Of a stretch of 64,000 nt of DNA, positions 40-40,311 are shown piece by piece. The stretch is from a virus (Duplodnaviria; Heunggongvirae; Uroviricota; Caudoviricetes): the IMG/VR virus record IMGVR_UViG_3300043105_000137; one strand, given 5' to 3'. Below the pieces are notes generated by a model. The model searched no databases. It had not been told where the DNA came from and saw only the letters and a program-made list of their open reading frames with translations. The position numbers and the translations under genes were made by a program. Position 1 is the first letter of the stretch, and each line of letters starts with the position of its first letter.

Positions 40-121
40 GCTCATGTGGCGGAATTGGTAGACGCGACAGACTTAGGATCTGTTGTCAAAAGACGTATGG
101 GTTCGAGTCCCTTCATGAGCA
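40..121 (+). tRNA. tRNA-Leu (anticodon TAG), type II with long variable arm
   Basis: The acceptor stem gctcatg/catgagc pairs perfectly. The D-arm reads gcggaattggtagacgc and the anticodon stem-loop acaga-cuuagga-ucugu. A GGTTCGAGTCC T-loop is present. Confidence 0.8.
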
Positions 122-131
122 CCTAAACAAT

Positions 132-204
132 GTTGACGTACCCAAGTGGTTAAGGGACTGGTCTGCAAAACCATTATTCAGCGGTTCGACTCCGCTCGTC
201 AACT
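132..204 (+). tRNA. tRNA-Cys (anticodon GCA)
   Basis: The acceptor stem is gttgacg/cgtcaac. The anticodon stem-loop reads ctggt-cugcaaa-accat and the T-arm agcgg-ttcgact-ccgct. Confidence 0.8.
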
Positions 205-206
205 CT

Positions 207-800
207 ATGGATTGGACTGAGAACATTGACATATTAAAGAGATATATATTTGTAGATAAACTTTCTTATGAGGAAATTGGTCGTCTATTTGGATGTTCTG
301 GTAACAATATCAAGAAAGTAATGAGGAATAGAGGTTTTGAGTTACCTGTTCGGTCTAAAAACTCAGGAAAACAACCTGTCAATAAAGGTCAAGGTAAGAA
401 AACCTACTGTAAATATTGTGGAAAAGAAATAAAGTCCGGATGTAAATATTGTTCAAATAAATGTCAACAGGACTTTGAATATAAACAGTGGGTGGAACAT
501 TACAAATTAGATAACTCAATCGCTAAGTCAACAAAATGGGGACAATTACCTAAGCAATTACGACGTTATATATTTGAAAAGTTTGATTATAAATGTTGTG
601 AATGTGGTTGGTCAAAAGTAAACCCATATACAAACACTATTCCTTTAGAAATCGATCACATAGATGGAAACTCAGAAAATAACTCTGAGAATAATTTAAG
701 ATTGGTTTGTCCAAATTGTCACTCACTCACTTCTACATATAAAGGAGCGAATAGAGGTTTTGGTAGAAATATCACATGGACAATAAAAGACAAACATTAG
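207..800 (+). CDS. HNH homing endonuclease with an N-terminal HTH
   Basis: The protein carries the HNH core EIDHIDGN...LRLVCPNCHSL. It is inserted between tRNA genes, as is typical of phage homing endonucleases. Confidence 0.7.
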   Translation: MDWTENIDILKRYIFVDKLSYEEIGRLFGCSGNNIKKVMRNRGFELPVRSKNSGKQPVNKGQGKKTYCKYCGKEIKSGCKYCSNKCQQDFEYKQWVEHYKLDNSIAKSTKWGQLPKQLRRYIFEKFDYKCCECGWSKVNPYTNTIPLEIDHIDGNSENNSENNLRLVCPNCHSLTSTYKGANRGFGRNITWTIKDKH

Positions 801-804
801 GTTG

Positions 805-877
805 GGGTCCGTAGCTCAGATGGTAGAGCACCACACTTTTAATGTGGGGGTCGTGGGTTCGAGTCCCACCGGGCTCA
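805..877 (+). tRNA. tRNA-Lys (anticodon TTT)
   Basis: The D-arm is gctcagatggtagagc, the anticodon stem-loop ccaca-cuuuuaa-tgtgg, and the T-arm gtggg-ttcgagt-cccac. Confidence 0.8.
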
Positions 878-976
878 CAATTACATAAATATATTAGATG
901 AAGTAAAGATTCATACCGCAACTTTTTAGTACATAAATTTATATAGGTGGTTTTGATTTTGAATCTTGTTGATTAT

Positions 977-1061
977 GGAGAGTAAACTTTTGAGGTAAAA
1001 GGACGGTCTGCTAAACCGATTGTACGAGTAATCGTATGTGGTTCGTGTCCACTGCTCTCCG
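977..1061 (+). tRNA. tRNA-Ser (anticodon GCT), type II
   Basis: The acceptor stem is ggagagt/gctctcc and the anticodon loop cugcuaa. The variable arm is long. Confidence 0.7.
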
Positions 1062-1249
1062 CATTAATACTAACCTTAAAATTTTCTACCTATGCGATTT
1101 GAAGATGTTACTTTTGAAAAACAGTTGAGAAACTTTACTGACTACCAAATTCGTCAGATGTTAAATGAACCAAATGTAAGTGAAGAAAGAGATTTTAATA
1201 ATTTACATCCTTGGTTATTCTGACCATACACAATATGTAAAACAAACAA

Positions 1250-1810
1250 ATGACAACCAAAGCGAAACAAATTATTGACGCAACTTTAACTATTGAAGGT
1301 GGATATGCAAATGTAAAAGGAGATAGAGGTGGAGAAACTTACTGTGGTATTTCCAGAAAGAATTGGCCTAAGTGGTCTGGATGGAGTATTGTAGATAAGA
1401 ATAAACCTCTAAAATGGAATCAAAAAATAAACAATCTACAATTACAAACATTAGTAGAGGAATTTTATCTCACTAATTTTTATAACACTATGAAGATTGA
1501 TAGTTTTGATTCTTTATTAATCTCAGCTCATTTATATGATCATGCAGTAAATAGTGGTTGTGTAGGTTCAGTTAAATTATTACAACAAGCCATAAATAAA
1601 GTATGTAAGGTGAATATTGTTGTAGATGGTAAGATTGGACAAACAACAATTTCATATGCTAATGGAGTTCATAAAGATGAAATTGCGAAGGAATTAGGTA
1701 ATCAAAGAATCCAAAGATATAAGGATAATGTTGCTAAAAATCCTTCACAAAAACAATTCTTGACAGGTTGGTTAAATCGAGTTCAAGATACAATTAAAAA
1801 ATTTGGTTAA
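1250..1810 (+). CDS. GH108-family lysozyme-like protein with a PG_binding_3-like C-terminus
   Basis: The N-terminus EGGYANVKGDRGGETYCGIS matches the GH108 signature EGGYxNDxxDxGGxTxxGI. The C-terminus contains a VDGKIGQTTIS segment typical of PG_binding_3. Confidence 0.6.
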   Translation: MTTKAKQIIDATLTIEGGYANVKGDRGGETYCGISRKNWPKWSGWSIVDKNKPLKWNQKINNLQLQTLVEEFYLTNFYNTMKIDSFDSLLISAHLYDHAVNSGCVGSVKLLQQAINKVCKVNIVVDGKIGQTTISYANGVHKDEIAKELGNQRIQRYKDNVAKNPSQKQFLTGWLNRVQDTIKKFG

Positions 1811-1819
1811 ACAAATTTT

Positions 1820-1904
1820 GGAGAGGTGGCAGAGTGGTCGATTGCGGCGGTCTTGAAAACCGTTGGCCATTATTGGTCCGGGGGTTCGAATCCCTCCCTC
1901 TCCG
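1820..1904 (+). tRNA. tRNA-Ser (anticodon TGA), type II
   Basis: The acceptor stem ggagagg/cctctcc pairs perfectly. The anticodon stem-loop is gcggt-cuugaaa-accgt and the T-arm ggggg-ttcgaat-ccctc. Confidence 0.8.
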
Positions 1905-1909
1905 CCGAT

Positions 1910-3081: not shown

Positions 3082-4224
3082 ATGCAGATATTAGAAAAAA
3101 CAGAGTTAGACTTTTCAGATGTTTTGATTAAGCCTCGTCGTTCCACTATCGCCAGTCGTAAAGATGCAGATATAACACGAGAGTATAAATTCAAATGGTG
3201 TCCTTATACGATTAAAGGAACTGGTATAATGCAGGCTAATATGGGTACAATCGGTAACTTTGATGTGACGAGGAAGATGTTAAAAGTTGGTTTGTTTGCC
3301 TGTCTGCATAAACACCATGAAGTTAATGACCTTATTGACTTCTTCAAGAGTTTGTCTGACGATGAACGAAAACGAACATTTATTTCTATTGGACTAAAAG
3401 ACAATGGTGTTGATAAACTGAAACAACTGAATGAAGAAGTTTTCAGTGGTAAAGACTATAGTATGTCCATTTGTATTGATGTCCCTAATGGTTATATTCC
3501 ACAGGTAAAACAACTGGTCATTGATATTCGTAAGGTATATCCTAATTGTCTTTTGATGGTTGGTAATGTTGTTACTGGTGATATTGTTGAAGACCTTATC
3601 CTTTCGGGAGCTGACATAATCAAAGCTGGAATTGGTGGTGGTGGACAATGTATCACGAGAAAACAAACTGGTGTAGGTCGCCCTCAATTATCAACTATCA
3701 TAGAATGTGCGGATGCGGCTCACCAAGTGGGGGGTATGTGTTGTTCTGATGGTGGAATTACTTGTCCGGGTGATATTGGTAAGGCTTTTGGAGCAGGTGC
3801 GGATTTTATCATGATTGGTAGTTTGTATGCTGGAACAACGGAAGCTGATGGAGAAATAGTTGAAAAGACATACCTCACAAATGAACGAACAACAGAGGTG
3901 GTTAATTATGTCATGGGTGTAGTTAATCATGAAAAAGTATATGAAACCAAAAAGTTCAAGTTGTTCTATGGTATGAGTTCATCACTGGCTCAGGAAAAAT
4001 TTGGTGATGGAAAACGTAAGTATCGAGCCAGTGAAGGCCGTGTTAGTTTGGTACCATATGTAGGTTCAGTTGATGATGTAAATGAGGAATTTCTTGGTGG
4101 ATTGAGAAGTACAATGACATATATAGGAGCAACAAAACTTAAAGATATACCTAAGTGTTGTGTGTTCTATAAAGTGAATAATCAGTTGAACCGTACATAT
4201 GAAGGTTCAACAATAGGATATTAA
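3082..4224 (+). CDS. guaC: GMP reductase (IMPDH/GuaC family)
   Basis: The N-terminus LDFSDVLIKPRRST, the GIGGGGQCITR motif and the segment CSDGGITCPGDIGKAFGAGADFIMIG all match GuaC signature regions. Confidence 0.8.
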   Translation: MQILEKTELDFSDVLIKPRRSTIASRKDADITREYKFKWCPYTIKGTGIMQANMGTIGNFDVTRKMLKVGLFACLHKHHEVNDLIDFFKSLSDDERKRTFISIGLKDNGVDKLKQLNEEVFSGKDYSMSICIDVPNGYIPQVKQLVIDIRKVYPNCLLMVGNVVTGDIVEDLILSGADIIKAGIGGGGQCITRKQTGVGRPQLSTIIECADAAHQVGGMCCSDGGITCPGDIGKAFGAGADFIMIGSLYAGTTEADGEIVEKTYLTNERTTEVVNYVMGVVNHEKVYETKKFKLFYGMSSSLAQEKFGDGKRKYRASEGRVSLVPYVGSVDDVNEEFLGGLRSTMTYIGATKLKDIPKCCVFYKVNNQLNRTYEGSTIGY

Positions 4225-6497: not shown

Positions 6498-6510
6498 AAA
6501 TTGTAAAAAC

Positions 6511-6540
6511 TCAGTCAATGTTAACTTAAACTTGGCTGAG
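6511..6540 (+). terminator. Hairpin terminator candidate
   Basis: The arms ctcagtcaa...ttggctgag form an imperfect 9-bp inverted repeat, followed by a T-rich tract. Confidence 0.35.
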
Positions 6541-6560
6541 TTTGTTATTTTTATAGTGAA
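6541..6560 (+). promoter_or_regulatory. Class-2 conserved upstream motif
   Basis: The sequence TTTGTTATTTTTATAGTGAA lies upstream of the Thg1-like gene. Confidence 0.45.
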
Positions 6561-6577: not shown

Positions 6578-7351
6578 ATGATTTTCCGAACCCTAAAAGA
6601 AAAATGTGAGTATTACAGAAGTCTGACTGATTATCGACTTCTTCCAAATGGTTACATTATGGTTATGATTGATGGTAAGAATTTTTCCACATTAATCAAA
6701 AACAAATTTGAGAAACCATTTGATGAGCAGTTTATTGAGATGATGAATAAAACTGCGAAGTATCTATGTAAGAATATCCAAAATTGTGTAGGTGCTTTTG
6801 TTCAATCAGATGAAATTAGTCTTGTCATTCGAGACACTAATGAAACCTGTGTACCCTTTGATGGTAGAATGTGTAAACTTTTGTCCATCATTCCCTCTAT
6901 TGCAACATCATACTTCACAAAGTTGATGATTGAATATGAGTTGAAACTTGTCCCCAGATTTGACCACATCTTTGAAATGAAAGATTATGTGTTCGACTGT
7001 AAGGTATGGGTTGTTCCTAATGAGAATGATATGTTAGCTTGGTTCTTATACCGTCAGATAGATTGTATTAAGAACTCAAAGAATCAGTTTTGTCAGACAT
7101 ATCTCTCACACAACACCCTGAGAGGACACAATTCAGATGAACAAGTTAAGTTGTGTTTGGAACAGACTGGAAATGATTGGAATTTGGTTTCTGATGATAA
7201 AAAGTTTGGTCGTTTCATCTACAAATCACAAGTAGTTAAAGTAAACCCAGAAGGACAGGAATATACCAGAAGTGTATGGGATATTGTTTCTTATGAGATT
7301 GCTAACAAAGAAAACAGAGAAGACTTAAAAAATAAATGGTTAAATAAATGA
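6578..7351 (+). CDS. Thg1-like protein (tRNA-His guanylyltransferase / 3'-5' nucleotidyltransferase family)
   Basis: The segments MVMIDGKNFSTL and AFVQSDEISLVIRD align with the Thg1 regions VVRLDGRNFHRF and AYGQSDEYSFVF that contain the catalytic carboxylates. Confidence 0.6.
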   Translation: MIFRTLKEKCEYYRSLTDYRLLPNGYIMVMIDGKNFSTLIKNKFEKPFDEQFIEMMNKTAKYLCKNIQNCVGAFVQSDEISLVIRDTNETCVPFDGRMCKLLSIIPSIATSYFTKLMIEYELKLVPRFDHIFEMKDYVFDCKVWVVPNENDMLAWFLYRQIDCIKNSKNQFCQTYLSHNTLRGHNSDEQVKLCLEQTGNDWNLVSDDKKFGRFIYKSQVVKVNPEGQEYTRSVWDIVSYEIANKENREDLKNKWLNK

Positions 7352-7818: not shown

Positions 7819-7871
7819 TACAATAGAAAGTTGAACTGAAAATGATTCAACTTTCTAATTTTTAAGAAGTT

Positions 7872-11218: not shown

Positions 11219-12493
11219 ATGAAACTAACATTCAAAGACATAGAAGATAAAGGACTTCTCTTATATCGTTACATAAGGGGTTCACAGGTCTATGGTACCA
11301 ATGTCGAAACAAGTGACGTTGATGAAGGTGGTATCTATATCGCTCCCTCAAATCAACTTCTTGACCTTGGTTTTGATTACCAGAATGAAATCTGTGATGA
11401 GAAACATGATACCTGTTGGTGGGAGATAGGTAAGTTCATGAGACTACTCCTATCATCTAACCCCACTGTATTGGAAGCCCTGTTCGTTCCTGATGATAAG
11501 GTCTTGTATGAACACCCCATCATTACGAATATCAAAAAGTATCGTGACCAATTCATCACCAAACAATGTTTCATGCCTTTTGGTGGTTATGCTGTGTCTC
11601 AGATTAAAAAGGCTCAGGGACAAGATAAGAAAATTCACTGGGACATTGAGAAGATGGTTAGAAAGACTCCCCTCGATTTTTGTTATACTTTTAAGGGACA
11701 GGGTAGTCAAAACATTCAAACTTGGCTCAGTGAACGAGGTCTTGACCAAAGTAACTGTGGATTGGTAAATGTGCCCAATATGCCTAATATGTTTGATGTG
11801 TTCTATGACTTTGGTCAACACATTGAACTAAATGGTATCACAAAAGAATTTTTCACCGACGAAAAAAATCGTAATGACAAATTCTTGAACTATGTATATA
11901 CAACTTTAACATCTAAATTTGACCAGACCGAAATGAAATGGTCTTGGGTAATGAAAAATCTTTATGAAAAAATTAAAACTCCTTTTGGTAAACACTGCGG
12001 TATCATTTCTAATGTGGGTTCAAGTAATGAAATCCGTTTTTCAGAAACATTAAAAGGTTCTACACCTATTTGTTATATGTCTTACAATGAAAATGGTTAT
12101 AGACAACATTGTAAGAAATATCGTGAGTATGAGGATTGGAAGAAAAACCGTAACAAAGCTCGGTATGAAAACAACCTTGAAGGACTCGAAAAAGAAAACT
12201 CAGCGAAGTTCTATGATGCTAAGAATATGTGTCACTGTTTCCGTCTGATTTCTATGGCGATTGAAGTAGCTAAGGGTGAAGGACTTAAACTTGACCGTAG
12301 AGGAATTGATGCTGATTTTCTCCTTGATGTTAGAAATAGAAAATATACTTATGATGAGTTGATGTCTAAACTAACAGAACTTAAATCTCAAATGGATGAA
12401 GAAATATCTAAATCTGTTATTCCTGATGAGATTTCTGTTGATATGGTAAATGACCTCCTGTTATATGCACGAAATAAATTCAACCAGAAATGA
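11219..12493 (+). CDS. Pol-beta-superfamily nucleotidyltransferase
   Basis: The N-terminus carries GSQVYGTNVETSDVDEGG, a match to the GS-x9-13-DxD nucleotidyltransferase signature. Confidence 0.5.
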   Translation: MKLTFKDIEDKGLLLYRYIRGSQVYGTNVETSDVDEGGIYIAPSNQLLDLGFDYQNEICDEKHDTCWWEIGKFMRLLLSSNPTVLEALFVPDDKVLYEHPIITNIKKYRDQFITKQCFMPFGGYAVSQIKKAQGQDKKIHWDIEKMVRKTPLDFCYTFKGQGSQNIQTWLSERGLDQSNCGLVNVPNMPNMFDVFYDFGQHIELNGITKEFFTDEKNRNDKFLNYVYTTLTSKFDQTEMKWSWVMKNLYEKIKTPFGKHCGIISNVGSSNEIRFSETLKGSTPICYMSYNENGYRQHCKKYREYEDWKKNRNKARYENNLEGLEKENSAKFYDAKNMCHCFRLISMAIEVAKGEGLKLDRRGIDADFLLDVRNRKYTYDELMSKLTELKSQMDEEISKSVIPDEISVDMVNDLLLYARNKFNQK

Positions 12494-13677: not shown

Positions 13678-14769
13678 ATGAATGATTTAATTAAAGACCT
13701 ATACTTTACGAAAAGTTTCGTCAGTTATTCACATGGTCTAAATAAATGTTTTGGTTGTAAGTATTGTCGAGCGATTGAAACTGACAAATTAAACTATGAC
13801 ATTTTACCAGAAGAAATCAATCCCATCTTCAAAAGTTTTCCGGTTGCGATTAATTTGATGTATGGAGATCCCCTTCTACAAGTTGATGATACTGTAAAGA
13901 AACTTAGGAGATTGGAAAGTGTTGGTCATACAGGCCCAGTTATCATAATCACCAAAGGAGATATATCAAAGTTTCCTATTTTGGAAACTTTTGACTTGAA
14001 CCTTCATTTTGGTTTATCTACTTTTGGTTATGATTCTCCTTATGATGGTAATACATTAAAACGGTTTATTCACAATCTCGATGTCATTTCTCAAAGTAAT
14101 TACAAGTATAACATTGAGTTCAGACCTATCATTCGTGATGTAAATGACTCTGATGATGTCTTTGACTTTGTATGTCGAACTGCTTCTGAATATAAAACAT
14201 CTATTGGGTATTCAGGATTACAGGTCAACCCCTCACTAAAACAATATTTAGAAAGTCAAGATATTCATTTCAAACCGTATGATGGACATGAGTTTGGGTT
14301 GAAGAAATTTATATCTGATGAGAGAGATAATAGACTGAGAGAAATTGCTAAGTCTTATGATGTCCCTATTTTTAGAAAGACTTCATGTTTAATTGCCCAT
14401 ACACATAATCTGGAAAGGGATCCAAATGCACATTATTATAGACCAAATGAGGTTGGTTGTTGGGATTGTCCTATGAGGGATAAATGTATGAGTTATAAGA
14501 AATCCCATGAAACAAAAACTAAACTTGATATTGAAATCCCCTTTAATTATGAGTTAATCCATGATGTAAAATACCAATGTGGTCTATTGAAAGCAGGTCT
14601 ATGTAAATTTCCATCTAATGATTGTTTGAATATATCCGGAACTGTGATTAAAATAGATGATGAGATTACGACGACAGATGTTCGTGCGATAAAATGGTTA
14701 ACCGGATATACAGTCCAAGCCAAATTTCAAGAATTACCCTACCTATCAAAAAACTGGTTAAAACAATGA
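13678..14769 (+). CDS. Hypothetical Cys-cluster protein, possibly a radical-SAM-like Fe-S enzyme
   Basis: An N-terminal CFGCKYC cluster (CxxCxxC) is followed by a Gly-rich MYGDPLL segment. This fit is weak because canonical radical SAM enzymes have CxxxCxxC. Confidence 0.3.
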   Translation: MNDLIKDLYFTKSFVSYSHGLNKCFGCKYCRAIETDKLNYDILPEEINPIFKSFPVAINLMYGDPLLQVDDTVKKLRRLESVGHTGPVIIITKGDISKFPILETFDLNLHFGLSTFGYDSPYDGNTLKRFIHNLDVISQSNYKYNIEFRPIIRDVNDSDDVFDFVCRTASEYKTSIGYSGLQVNPSLKQYLESQDIHFKPYDGHEFGLKKFISDERDNRLREIAKSYDVPIFRKTSCLIAHTHNLERDPNAHYYRPNEVGCWDCPMRDKCMSYKKSHETKTKLDIEIPFNYELIHDVKYQCGLLKAGLCKFPSNDCLNISGTVIKIDDEITTTDVRAIKWLTGYTVQAKFQELPYLSKNWLKQ

Positions 14770-15718: not shown

Positions 15719-16339
15719 ATGACAGAACAAGATTACATAGAATATGCTGAACAAGCCTTCGACAATATAGTTGATGCTCTTGAACAGATTGAACTTGGAA
15801 AGGTAACAATCCTTACAGGTGACAATGGTTCAGGTAAGTCACTTATTAGAAAAGTCCTTGCTTCTGACCTCAAAAGAAAGAACAATGGTGAGAAGGTGAT
15901 TGTTGCGGATTCTTCTATGGATAAACGAACCGGACTTCATAGTGAAATGGGTGGTGGTGGTGTTTTCCTTCGTGACACATCTTGGGTAGCAACATCAAGT
16001 AACACAATGAATGGAATCAAAGGTTTGTTTAGTTGTTCAGATGACCGTTATATCGTACTTGATGAACCTGAAATTGGTATGAGTGCTTCTATGCAAATGT
16101 CATGGGGTAAATATATCAATGACTACTTGACTGAAAATAAGGACAAATACAAAGGTGTTCTTATCATTTCTCACTCAAAAACTCTGATTAATCAACTCAC
16201 AATCGCTGACAAATTCATTAATATCCAAAAGAAAACCAAAGAAGAATGGATGAATGAAGAACCAGAGATGATTGATATTGAAGAATTTGAGAAAAAATCA
16301 AATGCTCTTTATAAGGTGTTGTCAAATCACCTCAAATAA
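15719..16339 (+). CDS. P-loop ATPase (ABC/AAA_21-like)
   Basis: Walker A is GDNGSGKS and the Walker B / D-loop region reads VLDEPEIGMS. Confidence 0.55.
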   Translation: MTEQDYIEYAEQAFDNIVDALEQIELGKVTILTGDNGSGKSLIRKVLASDLKRKNNGEKVIVADSSMDKRTGLHSEMGGGGVFLRDTSWVATSSNTMNGIKGLFSCSDDRYIVLDEPEIGMSASMQMSWGKYINDYLTENKDKYKGVLIISHSKTLINQLTIADKFINIQKKTKEEWMNEEPEMIDIEEFEKKSNALYKVLSNHLK

Positions 16340-16545: not shown

Positions 16546-17025
16546 ATGATTGCTGAAAATTATAAAACTCTCGAACAAGCTATCACCATCCTTGAAATTC
16601 TTGGTGTTCCTCACTATGACATGATGGTGTGTGGAAGTATCGCTCTTGATATTTGTGGTTTGTTCCCTGAAAATAGAGACGCCGCCACTGACATAGACAT
16701 TGTTATCCGAGTAAAACATGATGAAATAGAAGCTTATCGTCGACTTATTCTCTGGGTAAACAATATCCAAGAACGTGTAATGGGACAAGAAACATCACCC
16801 GGAAAACCCATGTCACTATATATGAAAGGTGATAAACACATTGATATATGGTTGGTGGACAAAGAAACTACCGACTTTGGAACAGATATTCAATTCCAAT
16901 CAAAGGATCCTGTTGTGACTGGTTTCTGGGTTGAACGACCTATCGACTGTATCAACAAAAAGAAAGAATACAATCGAACAAAAGACATTAAGGATATTCA
17001 ATCAATCGTAAAAAAAATATTATGA
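16546..17025 (+). CDS. Minimal nucleotidyltransferase (pol-beta fold)
   Basis: The segment CGSIALDICGL...DIDIVIRV matches the GS...DxD nucleotidyltransferase signature. Confidence 0.5.
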   Translation: MIAENYKTLEQAITILEILGVPHYDMMVCGSIALDICGLFPENRDAATDIDIVIRVKHDEIEAYRRLILWVNNIQERVMGQETSPGKPMSLYMKGDKHIDIWLVDKETTDFGTDIQFQSKDPVVTGFWVERPIDCINKKKEYNRTKDIKDIQSIVKKIL

Positions 17026-17285
17026 TAAATCTCGCTGATATACTAAGACATTGTAAAAAAGGTATCACACTCTACACTACAGTCTATGGTGAAGTAACAT
17101 TTAATGGTGTTTCTGAATTTGAGACCATTATGTTTTCGTGCGATATTAATGATGATGAGGTCTTTTGTGATGCAACTGATATGTATGGAAAGTTGTTCTC
17201 AAAAGGTGAGTGTATCATTTTCCCAAGCTATGACCGTCTCAAATGGAATGATGTTAAGGAAGTAAATGGTGAACTGTCATGGTAA
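17022..17285 (+). CDS. Hypothetical protein
   Basis: An 87-aa ORF with an ATGA overlap. Confidence 0.4.
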   Translation: MINLADILRHCKKGITLYTTVYGEVTFNGVSEFETIMFSCDINDDEVFCDATDMYGKLFSKGECIIFPSYDRLKWNDVKEVNGELSW

Positions 17286-17797
17286 ATCGAATAAGTGTTT
17301 TTTCACAAGCTGACTTCGACATTAAGATGTGGCGAATGAATATCAGCGATGAAAATGTGGAGAGAGAAACAGACAAGGCGTTCATCTCTATCATTGGAAC
17401 ACCGGATTGTCTTAACAACTATCTCCATGAAGAAACATATCACTGGTTCCAAAAAGATACAGATAATGTGTTGAATATGGAATTTGATGATGTGAATGAT
17501 GACCAATTCCTATACAAAGGGACAACGTTCTTAGGTATCAGTGAAGACCAAGCTAAGAAATGTGTAGAATTTATTGAACGAAATAAAGGTCGTAATTTCT
17601 ATATTCACTGTCGAGCTGGTAAATCAAGATCACAAGCCATCTGTCGTTTCATACTTGATATGTATGGTGAAGAATATGGATACACTGAAAAAGAATCATG
17701 TCTATCCAGTAACCCTCCCAAAACACCTAACATCAGGGTGTTGACTATGTTGAAAAGAGAATTTTATAAACTCCATAATATGTTTGAAGAAAAATGA
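17279..17797 (+). CDS. Protein tyrosine / dual-specificity phosphatase
   Basis: The CX5R catalytic loop IHCRAGKSRS is present. Confidence 0.6.
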   Translation: MVNRISVFSQADFDIKMWRMNISDENVERETDKAFISIIGTPDCLNNYLHEETYHWFQKDTDNVLNMEFDDVNDDQFLYKGTTFLGISEDQAKKCVEFIERNKGRNFYIHCRAGKSRSQAICRFILDMYGEEYGYTEKESCLSSNPPKTPNIRVLTMLKREFYKLHNMFEEK

Positions 17798-33520: not shown

Positions 33521-35431
33521 ATGGCTTTTCTTCAAAACAAATTTATAGAAGATTATAAAACCGCCTGTCAAATACAAAAACTATATAAACAAATATATAG
33601 AATTTGTTATAAGATGGGCAACTATTATGTACCAAAAGGTAGTAGAATTGTTACTGTCACTTCAGATGATGGTACAACTCGACAAGTATATAGACCCGTA
33701 TATAACAATAGAATAATTGAGACTGATGGGTGGTATGATGGTAATGAAGATGTAAAAATTCACCCAAATGGTGTTAAATCAATATCTTTAACTCAAAATA
33801 CATATCTTACAATATCACAAATTGAAGATTTATATCTGTATAATAATATTATTCTTGCTAGTTATGATAGTACCACACAAAATGTTCCACAATATTTAAA
33901 AACAGGTGAGCTAAATGAGAAATTCAAATCTATATCTGTCGAAATACAATCATTATTATTCACATTGATTGATTCCGAAGCTCTAACGCCTTTTAGAACA
34001 TCATACACATATTATCCCGTAATGGATGCCAGATACCCCCATGTTCACTGGGCTTATGTTGCGATGAAAAATAATATGAATAAGTCACAAAGACGAATAT
34101 TCTATAACACTTGTATCGGTAAAACACTTCAAGAATATAAACGATTTACCACACACACATTTCCCAGAATATATAAACAACCTTGGGATAGTGGAACTTG
34201 GACACATACAGAGGATGAAACAAATTTGACCGATAGAGATAGAGTAAAAAAGAAAATGTATAAACAATGGTCAAGAACAGATTCAAGTGCTAACTATCTA
34301 ATTCTTAAAGCTGAGGAAGTATTAGAGAAATATGGTTGGCCTGAAGATGACCTTATTAAAACAAGTGAAGTCCCTGTTAGAATTGTTTTCTTTACAGGTG
34401 CGGGTATGAGTGAGGAAAATGGTATCTATACATATAAGAGTGAGGAAGAAGGTAATTTGTGGTATGAGAACCCTATTGATATGATAATGACAAAATCCGG
34501 GTGGAATTCTGACCCTGTTTTCTTGAATAGATTTTTTAATGAATTGAGAGCCAGTTACATTAATAAAAATACCATGCATCTTGGTTATCAAATTATAAAT
34601 AAATTCATTAATGATACTATTGGTGAAGGAACAAATAAACATAATACCTTTGATGTGAAAATCATTACTCAGAATATTGATGACCTACATGACAAAGCAT
34701 TATGTGACTATTTTTTTAGATATTATAACACGTCATATGAACCCCCGATATATGGAATTAGTGATAGTGGTTTTTATAAATATATGAAATTTACCAATAT
34801 TGGAAAATCTATGACAGCGAAAGAATTCATAGATGAACACCTTATACATCTTCATGGTAATTTAATGATTATGTGCAATGAAGATGATGTCGATAATACA
34901 AACTACCATGCTGACTTATCATATTGGACAAAAAGTGTTTCCGAAGATGATAACACAACAACAACAACATTGGCAGGAGTTTCAAAATATAAAAAAGTAA
35001 ATGGTAAGTATGTACAATCCGGAGTTGTAACAATAGACACAACAGAAAGTCATAAAGATTGTGGATTACCAACAGATGCTAAGGTTTGGACTTATTTCCC
35101 AAAAGTCAAACAGACATCAAATGGTAATGCAAAGATGAGACCTTGGATTACTCTATATCACGAAACCGTAAATAGAATGACAGAAGCTATCGAATTGGTT
35201 AGGTCTTGTGACATATTCGTAATGGTGGGAACTTCATTAGAAACTTTCCCCGCAGCCAATTTAATGACTTATGTTCCATCGACTACACCTATCATATATA
35301 TAGACCCAAATCCAAATACTGAAATGATAGAAAAACTAAAGATGACCAGTAGAACAGAAATAGTTAAAACATATGCACCAAATGGTCTTTCTCATGTGTT
35401 AGATGTATATCTTATGGGTTTGAAAATATAG
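33521..35431 (+). CDS. SIR2 (sirtuin-like) domain protein fused to an N-terminal domain of about 280 aa with no recognisable motifs
   Basis: Four sirtuin motifs appear in order: FFTGAGMSEENGI (GAGxS), TQNIDDLH (QNIDxLH), HLHGN (catalytic His) and VMVGTSLETFPAANL (GTSL..P). The canonical Zn-binding cysteine pairs are absent. Confidence 0.7.
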   Translation: MAFLQNKFIEDYKTACQIQKLYKQIYRICYKMGNYYVPKGSRIVTVTSDDGTTRQVYRPVYNNRIIETDGWYDGNEDVKIHPNGVKSISLTQNTYLTISQIEDLYLYNNIILASYDSTTQNVPQYLKTGELNEKFKSISVEIQSLLFTLIDSEALTPFRTSYTYYPVMDARYPHVHWAYVAMKNNMNKSQRRIFYNTCIGKTLQEYKRFTTHTFPRIYKQPWDSGTWTHTEDETNLTDRDRVKKKMYKQWSRTDSSANYLILKAEEVLEKYGWPEDDLIKTSEVPVRIVFFTGAGMSEENGIYTYKSEEEGNLWYENPIDMIMTKSGWNSDPVFLNRFFNELRASYINKNTMHLGYQIINKFINDTIGEGTNKHNTFDVKIITQNIDDLHDKALCDYFFRYYNTSYEPPIYGISDSGFYKYMKFTNIGKSMTAKEFIDEHLIHLHGNLMIMCNEDDVDNTNYHADLSYWTKSVSEDDNTTTTTLAGVSKYKKVNGKYVQSGVVTIDTTESHKDCGLPTDAKVWTYFPKVKQTSNGNAKMRPWITLYHETVNRMTEAIELVRSCDIFVMVGTSLETFPAANLMTYVPSTTPIIYIDPNPNTEMIEKLKMTSRTEIVKTYAPNGLSHVLDVYLMGLKI

Positions 35432-37272: not shown

Positions 37273-37292
37273 ATCATGTCGTGAGACATGAC
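37273..37292 (+). repeat. GTGA-tetraloop hairpin repeat, copy a
   Basis: The structure is tcatgtc-GTGA-gacatga. Confidence 0.5.
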
Positions 37293-37351
37293 CATAACAA
37301 ATGAGTTTTAATTGATATTTTTAAAGTTGTTTAAAATTTACACATTAAATA

Positions 37352-37379
37352 ATCATCATGTCGTGAGATAGACTGATTA
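37352..37379 (+). repeat. GTGA-tetraloop hairpin repeat, copy b (degenerate 3' arm)
   Basis: The sequence taatcatcatgtc-GTGA-gatagactgatta abuts the 5' end of the tRNA at 37380. Confidence 0.45.
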
Positions 37380-37452
37380 AACTCCGTAGCTCAGTTGGTA
37401 GAGCGTCTGGTTAAACACTGGAAGGTCGTGGGTTCGAGTCCCATCGGAGTTA
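37380..37452 (+). tRNA. tRNA with a non-canonical anticodon loop UUAAACA (nominal anticodon AAA with C37)
   Basis: The acceptor stem aactccg/cggagtt, the D-arm gctcagttggtagagc and the T-arm gtggg-ttcgagt-cccat are all canonical. The anticodon stem tctgg/ctgga contains two G-U pairs. Confidence 0.55.
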
Positions 37453-37471
37453 CTTTTTCATTTGATGCTTT

Positions 37472-37487
37472 TATGTCGTGAGACATA
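37472..37487 (+). repeat. GTGA-tetraloop hairpin repeat, copy c
   Basis: The structure is tatgtc-GTGA-gacata. Confidence 0.5.
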
Positions 37488-37583
37488 ACCATAGTAAGTG
37501 TTTTTTTTTAGTACATTATTTTTTTTTCATTGTATATAAGTTTTTGATTTATAAATAAATTATTTATTAAGTGAGAGAGAGAA

Positions 37584-37612
37584 AATCATCATGTCGTGAG
37601 ACATGATTGATT
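37584..37612 (+). repeat. GTGA-tetraloop hairpin repeat, copy d
   Basis: The sequence aatcatcatgtc-GTGA-gacatgattgatt ends 1-2 nt before tRNA-Lys. Confidence 0.5.
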
Positions 37613-37613
37613 A

Positions 37614-37686
37614 GGCTTCGTAGCTCAGTTGGTAGAGCAACTGACTCTTAATCAGTGGGTCGTGGGTTCGAGCCCCACCGGAGTCA
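37614..37686 (+). tRNA. tRNA-Lys (anticodon CTT)
   Basis: The acceptor stem ggcttcg/cggagtc contains G-U pairs. The anticodon stem-loop is actga-cucuuaa-tcagt and the T-arm gtggg-ttcgagc-cccac. Confidence 0.75.
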
Positions 37687-37747
37687 CAGAGTTTTTTACT
37701 AATTTTTTTAAATTATTCTTATAGAATTTAAATTTTTACACACAAAT

Positions 37748-37776
37748 AATCATCATGTCGTGAGATAGCATTGATT
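37748..37776 (+). repeat. GTGA-tetraloop hairpin repeat, copy e
   Basis: The sequence aatcatcatgtc-GTGA-gatagcattgatt abuts the tRNA at 37777. Confidence 0.45.
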
Positions 37777-37851
37777 GACTTCGTACGTCTCAGCTGGTAG
37801 AGCGTCTGGTTAAACACTGGAAGGTCGTGGGTTCGATCCCCACCGAAGTCA
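37777..37851 (+). tRNA. Second tRNA with the UUAAACA anticodon loop, with an irregular D-arm
   Basis: The acceptor stem gacttcg/cgaagtc pairs perfectly. The anticodon arm is identical to the one at 37380. The D-region carries 3 extra nt (tacgtctcagctggtagagc) and the T-arm is gtggg-ttcgatc-cccac. Confidence 0.45.
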
Positions 37852-38813: not shown

Positions 38814-39448
38814 AAGATATAAATTTTAAGTTAGTCTTTTCAGGAAAGTTATCTTCTTGGACTGACGTTTTTAATATAATCGAACAAGCTGAAGATAACC
38901 ATGATGTTCGTTTCCTAATTAAAGTGGATGGAACAACATATAGTTATTTTTGGTGGAATGAATATACTAAATCTTGGAATATGTTTTTTTCGTATTTCAA
39001 GAATTATGAACTGAAATCAACAACAAAATGGCCTTATTATTGGTGGCCTGATGCCGTAGATGTTTATATGGTAACTGACCCGACGATTTTTATTCGTGAA
39101 CTTCAAAACGATTTACGACATGAGTCTTTCCAAAAATTAACTTATCCTGACTCTAAACTGAGTGTAATGGTGGATATGATTAAACCTATACTTGGCTCAG
39201 TGGTTGAAGTTAAAAATGAGAAAGTATTGTTGTTGGGATTGTCTTATACATTTGATGACTATTATTACTACTACCTGACACAAGATAATAAAATCGGTTT
39301 CACATCTTCGGTAGGAAAAATAGTTCAACATTATGACCAAACACGAGCTGAGTTATTGAAGGAGGACATTGAAACAAAACAACTTGTCCAGAACCTTAGA
39401 TGGGAACATTTCAAAGACGCTCCGGAAATAGAAATAATACACGTTTAA
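38810..39448 (+). CDS. Hypothetical protein
   Basis: A 212-aa Trp/Tyr-rich ORF. Confidence 0.45.
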   Translation: MKDINFKLVFSGKLSSWTDVFNIIEQAEDNHDVRFLIKVDGTTYSYFWWNEYTKSWNMFFSYFKNYELKSTTKWPYYWWPDAVDVYMVTDPTIFIRELQNDLRHESFQKLTYPDSKLSVMVDMIKPILGSVVEVKNEKVLLLGLSYTFDDYYYYYLTQDNKIGFTSSVGKIVQHYDQTRAELLKEDIETKQLVQNLRWEHFKDAPEIEIIHV

Positions 39449-39450
39449 TT

Positions 39451-40311
39451 ATGATAACATTTGTTTTAATTATCTTAGCAATTTTAATACTTCCTTATAT
39501 CCTTCATTTTTTGGGATTGGAAATATCAGAGTATTACAGAAAGAAATATAATGATCGTGAACTGGTCAAGGAATTCAAAAACTATCGAGGTTATATTGGA
39601 TTTTATAACAACCCCAGTCTTATGATTTATTATACACATCATGGAGTTTATACCGACTGTAAATGGGCTCACAAAATTCTAATCTATTTTGGTGGTTGTG
39701 TCTTGTGTTGGCAATGGGGTAATGACTTCAATGAGAATACAGGTCTTGACTATGCTTCTATTTCATACTCTTGGGGTTGGGATTCTATCAATGGTGAAAA
39801 ATGGTGGACTGATTTTAGATGGCGTAACCGTACTTTTTCTAACCCTTTCAAAGCAACCCACTATGATAACTCTTGGATAATCGACTTTAATAATAAGACG
39901 TTAGTTGAGAAAAGACAATTAGATGACATTAATGATTATCCTCTTGTTGATGTTAGATTGAATACCACCTACCGTATGAAGAATGACACAGTTCAAGATG
40001 TTTCCCGTATCCGTTGGTGGATTGAACAATGGGAATGGTCAGTGCCCTTCCTCAATAAAATAGGTCTTGGTAATTATTGTAAGAAAATAAATGTTGACCT
40101 CGAATTCCAATCTGACACTGAACTTGGCGTCAATCGGGATTCTTGGAAGGGTGGTGTAATGGGTGCCACTGTTAGAATTAGTGATGAACCCGAACTTCTC
40201 AAACTTTATCTCGACATCGTTAAACATCAGAAATTGGAGAAGATACCTCTACTCAGAACGGCTATCAAAAACCGTATCGACTATTTTATGAATGAAGAAA
40301 AAAAATATTGA
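39451..40311 (+). CDS. Membrane-anchored hypothetical protein
   Basis: The start was chosen at MITFVLIILAILILPYILHFLG, a transmembrane helix. The track start at 39400 overlaps the upstream gene. Confidence 0.4.
   Translation: MITFVLIILAILILPYILHFLGLEISEYYRKKYNDRELVKEFKNYRGYIGFYNNPSLMIYYTHHGVYTDCKWAHKILIYFGGCVLCWQWGNDFNENTGLDYASISYSWGWDSINGEKWWTDFRWRNRTFSNPFKATHYDNSWIIDFNNKTLVEKRQLDDINDYPLVDVRLNTTYRMKNDTVQDVSRIRWWIEQWEWSVPFLNKIGLGNYCKKINVDLEFQSDTELGVNRDSWKGGVMGATVRISDEPELLKLYLDIVKHQKLEKIPLLRTAIKNRIDYFMNEEKKY

Follow-up and report, generated by a model that had tools for sequence, protein, structure and literature searches.

A Thg1-like protein of the bacterial type in a tRNA-carrying megaphage, with a residue triad that departs from the canonical one

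Introduction

What would a bacteriophage that carries its own tRNAs do with an enzyme that extends RNA in the 3'-5' direction? This question is raised by a gene at positions 6578–7351 of a 64,000-nucleotide stretch of DNA (referred to below as the window) from the Caudoviricetes virus record IMGVR_UViG_3300043105_000137, whose product was proposed in an initial annotation, made from the sequence letters alone, to be a Thg1-like 3'-5' nucleotidyltransferase. Our analysis confirms this assignment: the product is a genuine member of the Thg1-like family of reverse (3'-5') RNA nucleotidyltransferases. On the reading that we prefer, to which a probability of roughly two in three may be given, it is a catalytically competent Thg1-like protein (TLP) of the bacterial type, which in its megaphage host genome would mainly repair the 5' ends of tRNAs or other RNAs by templated 3'-5' addition.

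Bacterial enzymes of the type of BtTLP, the TLP of Bacillus thuringiensis, mend tRNAs of many identities that have lost part of their 5' end, adding nucleotides in the 3'-5' direction against a template (PMC3701042); they are not guanylyltransferases specific to tRNA-His. The repair of 5'-truncated tRNAs by bacterial TLPs is also described in a further study (PMC3061083). Large tRNA-carrying phages provide a natural setting for asking if 3'-5' repair protects translation during infection. Phage-borne homologues of Thg1, and the hypothesis that they serve in repair and counter-defence, have already been published. A copy of Thg1 in a caudovirus and one in a mimivirus were noted by Anantharaman, Iyer and Aravind in 2010 together with bacterial gene neighbourhoods containing polynucleotide kinase (PNK), Macro and RNA ligase genes, and a role in RNA repair was proposed (PMC2904730). 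Later, Thg1, RlaP and CCA-adding enzymes were described as sporadic components of jumbo-phage RNA-repair systems, which counter host attacks on tRNA (Iyer et al., 2021; PMC7824862). A use in tRNA repair and counter-defence, as suggested for this locus in the initial annotation, is an inference which restates that hypothesis (PMC7824862, PMC2904730). At least 143 GenBank phage records encode TLP homologues, many of them annotated as such. The TLP gene is not mentioned in the paper describing the Lak megaphages, and a 2019 review of Thg1, which covers the repair activity in vitro, mentions neither phages nor viruses (PMC6471195).

Identification of the gene product

The 257-aa protein matched the Thg1 family PF04446 of Pfam with an E value of 3.3e-29 and a score of 101.9 bits, the curated cut-off being 29.2, and it matched PHROG 4717 ('tRNA-His guanylyltransferase') at 6.3e-48. 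A sequence search of the PDB recovered six Thg1/TLP entries, headed by 4kgk at 2.3e-18. With a family profile derived from 70 diverse homologues, BtTLP (4KGK) was matched at 1.5e-80 over its full length (residues 4–255 on 2–238), while the same profile matched a fungal Thg1 at 3e-33 and an archaeal TLP at 2e-28. The AlphaFold2 model of the protein has a mean pLDDT of 92.7, and the top 32 PDB structures found with it by Foldseek are all Thg1 or TLP structures, the first being 4KGM (E value 1.5e-19, TM score 0.88 on the target). The second Pfam family that had been proposed as a check, PF14413 (the Thg1 C-terminal domain), gave no match at E≤1; despite this, the C-terminal half of the protein aligns with BtTLP along its full length. 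Fusion partners were also considered as a clue to function and were discarded, as ten long homologues (347–476 aa) contain no Pfam domain besides Thg1.

Both of the signature segments quoted in the initial annotation, M30–F36 and F74–V83, are present, and the three catalytic carboxylates, D32, D78 and E79, align with D30, D75 and E76 of BtTLP and with D29, D76 and E77 of human hTHG1. Neither of the two grounds for refutation named in the initial annotation, a missing profile match and missing catalytic Asp/Glu residues, therefore applies. Among the 70 diverse homologues, D32 and G33 are kept in 69, and S77, D78 and E79 in all. The residues of the activation step are retained (K46 and S77, at the positions of K44 and S75 in yeast ScThg1), and a further lysine, K100, is conserved in 69–70 of the 70 homologues, like the metal-binding carboxylates. 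K100 is also the residue that is kept among those which in ScThg1 act in nucleotidyl transfer (R27, K96 and R133, with the bridging E13); the others are replaced, R27 by M30, R133 by K142 and E13 by R14. The position of N161 in ScThg1 and M158 in BtTLP is occupied by Q170.

By its sequence the protein is a bacterial-type TLP and not a eukaryotic-type Thg1, since the family profile favours BtTLP over eukaryotic Thg1 and since the HINNLYN motif, a eukaryote-specific element that contacts the tRNA-His anticodon (PMC6471195), is absent. The corresponding region reads DCIKNSKNQ in the phage protein and DASKNSISM in BtTLP.

The carrier genome and its tRNA genes

The identical TLP is found on 17 metagenomic contigs, the longest of 351,598 bp. 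Its closest relatives in GenBank, with 45–47% identity, belong to the Prevotella Lak megaphages, and no near-identical DNA was found among the GenBank phages. The phage origin of the window is confirmed, and the carrier is a Lak-related gut megaphage of about 350 kb. The G+C content of the window is 34.7%. A recoding of TAG to glutamine in the style of Lak was considered and rejected: TAG is rare (5 of the 82 open reading frames (ORFs) of at least 100 aa), and because reading through it gains just 0–25 codons, code 11 holds and TAG is a true, rare stop codon, unlike in Lak.

The window was said to hold at least eight tRNA genes, and this count stands, with six genes detected by ARAGORN and two more (37777–37851 and 978–1060) added by Rfam. 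The array at the distal end of which the window begins (Table 1) extends upstream of the window in a near-identical copy of the same genome (L002), where 10 further tRNA genes, including one for tRNA-His, were found; altogether, 15 tRNA genes lie within 10 kb upstream of the TLP gene in this dense array, with spacers of 6–8 nt.

From homology and from this context we infer how such an enzyme would act, and on what. TLPs are enzymes with a palm domain and use two metal ions; a 5'-monophosphate RNA end is activated with ATP or GTP in the first step, and in the second step nucleotides are added in the 3'-5' direction, with the 3' strand of the acceptor stem as template. The phage TLP would thereby serve as an enzyme of 5'-end repair and quality control, for which phage and host tRNAs, and possibly other broken RNAs, are the likely substrates. 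It would be one part of a dispersed phage RNA-repair repertoire that keeps translation running during infection, possibly in the face of host anti-phage nucleases.

The tRNA-His gene in the array bears upon a narrower role, in which the enzyme would be dedicated to G-1 maintenance, i.e. adding or restoring G-1 on the phage and/or host tRNA-His, templated by C73, for charging by histidyl-tRNA synthetase (HisRS). The Thg1 family is named after this reaction, bacterial and archaeal TLPs can add G-1 opposite C73, and a phage tRNA-His(GUG) with C73 is located about 8 kb upstream of the TLP gene (L002 2001–2076), as is one about 10 kb upstream in the relative L007. However, both of these genes encode G-1 opposite C73 (g2000 and c2073 in L002, where CCA is encoded as well), which is the bacterial arrangement, where RNase P leaves G-1 in place. 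Because G-1 is encoded, its addition is not obligatory and would be at most a back-up role for the TLP. Further, HINNLYN, the motif by which true Thg1 recognises the anticodon, is missing from the protein, and enzymes of the BtTLP type kinetically prefer 5'-truncated tRNAs of any identity (PMC3701042). A dedicated function in G-1 maintenance is hence unlikely, and a general repair of 5' ends is preferred.

The position of the gene beside a dense tRNA array with spacers of 6–8 nt could also be accounted for by 5' editing, in which encoded but mismatched 5' nucleotides of the phage tRNAs would be replaced, as is done by DdiTLP3 in amoebozoan mitochondria (PMC6471195). For such editing one would look to mismatches in the acceptor stems, but those of the 15 tRNAs of L002 and of the ARAGORN tRNAs of the window are paired at positions 1–3 (Watson-Crick or G-U), with tRNA-Met(CAU) as the sole exception. 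The latter (L002 1772–1846) carries a U1xU72 mismatch and is initiator-like. This reading is disfavoured and has, in our view, a very small probability.

Linkage with RNA-repair genes

In relatives of the phage, the TLP gene recurrently lies beside genes for RNA repair. In L006, an RNA ligase gene and a second RNA-ligase-like gene are followed by a Tpt1/KptA gene, which is located immediately upstream of it; KptA (1e-38) precedes it in L014; an RNA ligase gene (5.9e-12) follows about 200 bp downstream in L015; and in L016 it is flanked on either side by genes for a metallophosphoesterase and for an HD protein with an AAA_33 kinase domain. In the window, as well as in L005 and L007, a gene for RlaP lies 4–5 kb downstream (3.9 kb in the window), its position relative to the TLP gene being kept in these two relatives, and in Yersinia phage fHe-Yen9-04, which is unrelated, a distance of 3 kb separates the TLP gene from that of an RlaP homologue. 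Neither of the two forms of conserved linkage that were considered holds in general: adjacency of TLP and tRNA genes fails in L005, L006, Lak-A1 and Lak-B2, and that of TLP and RlaP genes, while it holds in the lineage of the window and in the Yersinia phage, fails in Lak, where they are 98–190 kb apart.

These neighbourhoods also suit a different kind of repair, in which the TLP would act on broken RNAs together with a phage ligase, Tpt1/KptA and end-healing enzymes, either rebuilding 5'-terminal nucleotides on the 3' fragment or making a 5'-adenylylated (App-RNA) end for sealing. KptA or RNA ligase genes are directly beside the TLP gene in L006, L014 and L015, and a kinase-HD protein gene in L016; ligation via 5'-App was proposed by Anantharaman et al. 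(2010) from neighbourhoods with PNK, Macro and ligase genes (PMC2904730); and DdiTLP4 works on RNAs other than tRNA (PMC6471195). Against this, the anticodon loop offers no template strand for templated addition, the activity is not known from any TLP, and in the window itself the surroundings of the TLP gene contain neither a ligase gene nor a KptA gene. Such break repair is thus improbable as the main function, about as much so as one confined to G-1, and we retain the templated repair of 5' ends as the preferred reading.

The initial annotation had placed the TLP in a tRNA 5'-end toolkit, together with two pol-beta nucleotidyltransferases and a CX5R phosphatase. The first of the nucleotidyltransferases is solidly identified as RlaP (Table 1), whereas the second is a candidate at the level of its motif only, which matched PHROG 12854, a family of unknown function, and nothing in Pfam or the PDB. 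The phosphatase-like protein has the expected signature, but its match to DSPc is weak and falls below the threshold; it otherwise matched PHROG 5614, also of unknown function, and, marginally, entries of the PDB. Its gene lies about 10 kb downstream of the TLP gene and is syntenic in L005 and L007, and a link between it and the TLP is unproven. The predicted targets of RlaP, which would work alongside ligases, are 3' ends, so what stands of this toolkit is not a '5'-end' kit. In addition, the ligase, KptA and kinase proteins of the relatives were not found in the window by tblastn.

Several observations weigh against the preferred reading. Among the 54 window ORFs scanned with Pfam there is no RNA ligase or polynucleotide kinase, and the TLP gene has a mixed neighbourhood, in which genes for a Dam-type methylase, an HNH endonuclease, a RecD/Dda-like helicase, a thymidine kinase and an IMPDH/GMP reductase are also found. 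In Lak-A1 and Lak-B2, the RlaP gene is 98–190 kb distant and no RNA-repair gene lies within 15 kb of the TLP gene. The adjacency to tRNA genes is not conserved either, no tRNA being present in the flanks of L005 and L006 (10 kb) or of both Lak loci (15 kb). As M30 replaces an arginine (R27 in ScThg1, R28 in BtTLP) that is reported to be important for nucleotidyl transfer, full activity is not to be assumed. The literature searched contained neither biochemical nor in vivo data on a phage TLP. Lastly, we know of no anti-phage nuclease that trims the 5' ends of tRNAs; those which have been characterised cut anticodon loops or 3' ends.

The replaced triad and its distribution

Two arginines of BtTLP, R28 and R131, touch the triphosphate of the GTP bound in the nucleotidyl-transfer site, and each of them is joined to E12 by a salt bridge; the residues that correspond to this triad in yeast, E13, R27 and R133, matter for activity (PMC3701042). 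According to the alignment, the phage TLP has R14, M30 and K142 at these three positions. Among 150 representatives of clusters formed at 50% identity, the combination E/R/R was found in 68, R/M/K in 45 and Q/H/K in 10, along with a few intermediate ones such as R/M/R. When 131 near-full-length sequences were placed in a neighbour-joining tree, all those with a non-canonical triad, 61 cluster representatives, formed one clade, inside of which no canonical sequence was placed. The only core columns that strongly discriminate this clade are those of the triad and of W144. The three positions change together. The departure is common to the whole clade and gives no reason to exclude the protein from the Thg1/TLP family.

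The distribution of the triad was examined in 80 loci from species-representative prokaryotic genomes. In 75 of these, from many phyla, arginines are present at the positions of M30 and K142, with E at position 14 or with position 14 unaligned (K or H in two). R/M/K was found in just five, which are also the closest ones (44–62% identity). These five are on contigs of metagenome-assembled genomes (MAGs) with low G+C content and many small ORFs on the same strand, one contig being of 360 kb, and the KptA and ligase genes on such contigs have their homologues on a 473 kb contig. The MAG contigs, L013–L017 (respectively JBGVNW010000068.1, JAFRDD010000067.1, CATEWF010000001.1, JAGCWQ010000230.1 and JBGVIL010000178.1 of GTDB), have been binned with Bacilli, Clostridia, Mycoplasmatota and Paludibacteraceae; in view of their phage-like flanks around an R/M/K TLP gene, they are probably mis-binned megaphage contigs. 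Lak-A1, Lak-B2, L006 and L007 also have R/M/K, and the TLPs of Bacillus phage G, Yersinia phage fHe-Yen9-04 and Bacillus phage TimeGriffin have the canonical E/R/R. In all, the replaced triad is present in 12 of the 12 phage or phage-like loci examined, in none of the 75 cellular loci and in none of the three TLPs from cultured phages.

Our interpretation of these replacements is that strand 1 has given up its arginine and the N-terminal helix has gained one instead, so that two basic side chains would still bind the triphosphate of the incoming nucleoside triphosphate (NTP). If so, nucleotidyl transfer would be retained, perhaps with an altered handling of NTPs. It is possible, although we regard it as tentative and well below even odds, that we are dealing with a TLP lineage, seen here on phage or phage-like contigs only (Lak-type gut and rumen megaphages and their relatives), in which the nucleotidyl-transfer site has been rebuilt as a unit from Glu-Arg-Arg to Arg-Met-Lys, or to Gln-His-Lys in a sub-branch. 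No earlier description of a rebuilt NTP-binding triad throughout a clade was found, and as a variant it matters only if function changes. If the choice of NTP or RNA end were altered by it, for example towards ends made in a Tpt1/KptA-ligase pathway, the lineage would form a branch with a new function within the one family of 3'-5' polymerases that is known, and phage infection would be the first physiological setting for a TLP of the prokaryotic type. The clade-wide swap of residues that hold the NTP also provides a ready-made experiment on nucleotide binding by a reverse polymerase, and it may interest those who engineer TLPs as tools for labelling RNA 5' ends (PMC11404450). Apart from the triad, the gene is of the auxiliary kind that one expects to find in a megaphage.

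The remodelling of the NTP-binding triad, and the sister relationship of Thg1 to the palm domains of GGDEF and Cas10, could also be taken to indicate a palm enzyme outside of RNA repair, which makes a nucleotide signal or decoy like GGDEF and mCpol, or else an inactive remnant. However, the fold agrees with that of BtTLP over the full length, as does the tRNA-binding half at the C terminus, the metal ligands and the activation residues are all kept, and 37 invariant columns among 55 sequences of the clade indicate strong purifying conservation. In the Foldseek search, structures of GGDEF and Cas10 proteins appeared only at E≥7e-3 with TM scores of about 0.25. Membership of the TLP in a defence system was considered and rejected, as PADLOC gave no match for it. 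This is the least probable of the alternatives, and a repair enzyme of the TLP type remains our choice.

Comparison with known systems

Of the characterised enzymes, BtTLP (4KGK/4KGM) resembles the phage protein in its full-length homology, fold, three carboxylates, activation-step lysine and serine, and in having DxxKNS in place of HINNLYN. It differs in that the identity is only about 28%, in its E12-R28-R131 triad in place of R14-M30-K142, in a phenylalanine at the position of W144 and in a shorter segment corresponding to residues ~118–136 of the phage protein; BtTLP is also cellular and not phage-borne. The TLPs of cultured phages (phage G gp378, fHe-Yen9-04 g142 and TimeGriffin gp67; PHROG 4717) are of the same family and size and likewise come from large tRNA-rich phages, but they are only 28–33% identical over the full alignment and carry E/R/R, in contrast to the R/M/K of the window protein and its Lak relatives. 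The eukaryotic Thg1 proteins of yeast, human and Candida (3OTB, 3WBZ, 5XOX) share the palm fold, the metal-binding carboxylates and, by homology, the two-step chemistry. They possess HINNLYN, unlike the phage TLP, and their profile score is only 3e-33; moreover, the non-templated addition of G-1 opposite A73 would be unneeded in this phage, whose tRNA-His has C73 and an encoded G-1.

The proposed logic, in which a phage mends tRNAs in order to sustain translation, is that of T4 Pnkp and Rnl1 and of the repair sets of jumbo phages (Iyer et al., 2021), with which the present system further shares RlaP and, in relatives, the ligase, KptA and kinase genes beside the TLP gene. T4, however, heals and seals breaks in the anticodon loop and has no 3'-5' polymerase, and the present window yielded neither a ligase nor a PNK.

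Other features of the window

The coordinates of the features are given in Table 1. NCBIfam gave no match for the TLP, RlaP, the phosphatase-like protein or the 156-aa protein encoded directly after the TLP, and for the last of these no family match of any kind was obtained. Upstream of the TLP gene there is a 9 bp hairpin with a T-rich stretch behind it (6510–6553), and a perfect 13 bp palindromic hairpin (7824–7857) follows the 156-aa ORF. Because of the stop/start overlap and the hairpins on both sides, the two genes could form a single transcription unit, and they are probably co-transcribed. The pairing is not conserved, as relatives have other genes in place of the 156-aa ORF. A scan for sigma-70 promoters around the TLP gene gave results no better than those for shuffled sequence, with a tool that does not cover promoters of Bacteroidota.

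Table 1. Positions of the TLP gene, its key residues and other features in the window.
Feature	Position	Strand	Evidence and remarks
TLP gene, bacterial-type, 257 aa	6578..7351	+	ATG start, stop codon within span; ORF list
R14 codon	6617..6619	+	Aligned with BtTLP E12 (ScThg1 E13); alignments and covariation tables
Motif M30-I-D32-G33-K-N-F36	6665..6685	+	D32 is the first metal-binding carboxylate; M30 in place of BtTLP R28, an arginine that canonical members all have
Motif F74-V-Q-S77-D78-E79-I-S-L-V83	6797..6826	+	Second and third carboxylates (D78, E79); serine of the activation step (S77)
K142 codon	7001..7003	+	Aligned with BtTLP R131 ('DxR' arginine, strand 4), FDCK vs FDGR; alignment and covariation
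ORF, 156 aa	7348..7818	+	Start overlaps TLP stop (ATGA); lipoprotein-like N-terminus (LTSC); Q/N/R/P-rich basic low-complexity tail
RlaP-family pol-beta nucleotidyltransferase (RNA-ligase-associated, RNA repair)	11219..12493	+	PF10127 2.7e-19; PHROG 388 6.3e-48
Candidate minimal nucleotidyltransferase	16546..17025	+	GS...DID motif only, seen in the translation; unconfirmed
Cysteine-phosphatase-like protein	17279..17797	+	Signature HCRAGKSRS; DSPc E 4.8e-5, 23.6 bits, cut-off 33.5; weak
tRNA array, distal end	40..1906	+	Leu-UAG 40–123; Cys 132–205; Lys-UUU 805–878; Ser-GCU-like 978–1060; Ser-UGA 1820–1906
Second tRNA cluster	37380..37851	+	Lys-CUU 37614–37687; Lys-like 37380–37453 and 37777–37851, loop UUAAACA

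Between the genes for RlaP and the phosphatase-like protein there is a 363-aa ORF (13678–14769), the product of which has an N-terminal CxxCxxC motif (CFGCKYC) and further cysteine pairs. It matched nothing in Pfam or PHROG and is kept in L001 and L002, which are near-identical copies of the genome.

Two proteins encoded elsewhere in the window, one of 636 aa with a SIR2 domain (33521–35431; 4.3e-15) and one of 303 aa which matches the CBASS inhibitor family Acb3 (39400–40311; 3.5e-7), are candidates for counter-defence based upon NAD+ or cyclic nucleotides. PADLOC gave no match for either of them, nor for RlaP. A 206-aa fragment of an ABC/OLD-type ATPase (15719–16339) resembles N- and C-terminal pieces of the defence ATPases PtuA, GajA and AriA (PADLOC E values 1e-8 to 1e-4), and when carried by a phage such a truncated version might act as a decoy or inhibitor.

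In the window, the IMPDH/GMP-reductase-like gene (3082–4224) is uninterrupted. The same gene in L005 (645–3280) and L007 (955–3599) consists of two ORFs, one with a weak match to Hint_2, around a gene for a NUMOD3 homing endonuclease, and such a split indicates the insertion of a mobile intron or intein.

Some of the tRNA genes are also of an unusual form. The tRNA-Ser(GCU)-like gene at 978–1060 has an aberrant D-arm; it was missed by ARAGORN and by Rfam with the gathering filter, and was detected with 35.4 bits when permissive filters were used. From its counterpart in the near-identical genome (L002 4399–4484) it differs in the anticodon stem by a double compensatory change (GG/CC vs TT/AA), and this speaks for a functional gene. 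The second cluster forms part of a three-tRNA cassette (37278–37851), in which each gene is preceded by GTCGTGAGA; five copies of this sequence are present here and none elsewhere in the window, 0.24 being expected by chance. Two of the three genes, at 37380–37453 and 37777–37851, have bodies like that of tRNA-Lys and an odd anticodon arm in common, whose loop gives a nominal anticodon AAA, with A34 of the unmodified type and a pyrimidine at position 37; the latter copy also carries a 2-nt insertion in the D-arm. These odd Lys-like tRNAs may be decoys, pseudogenes or unusual decoders.

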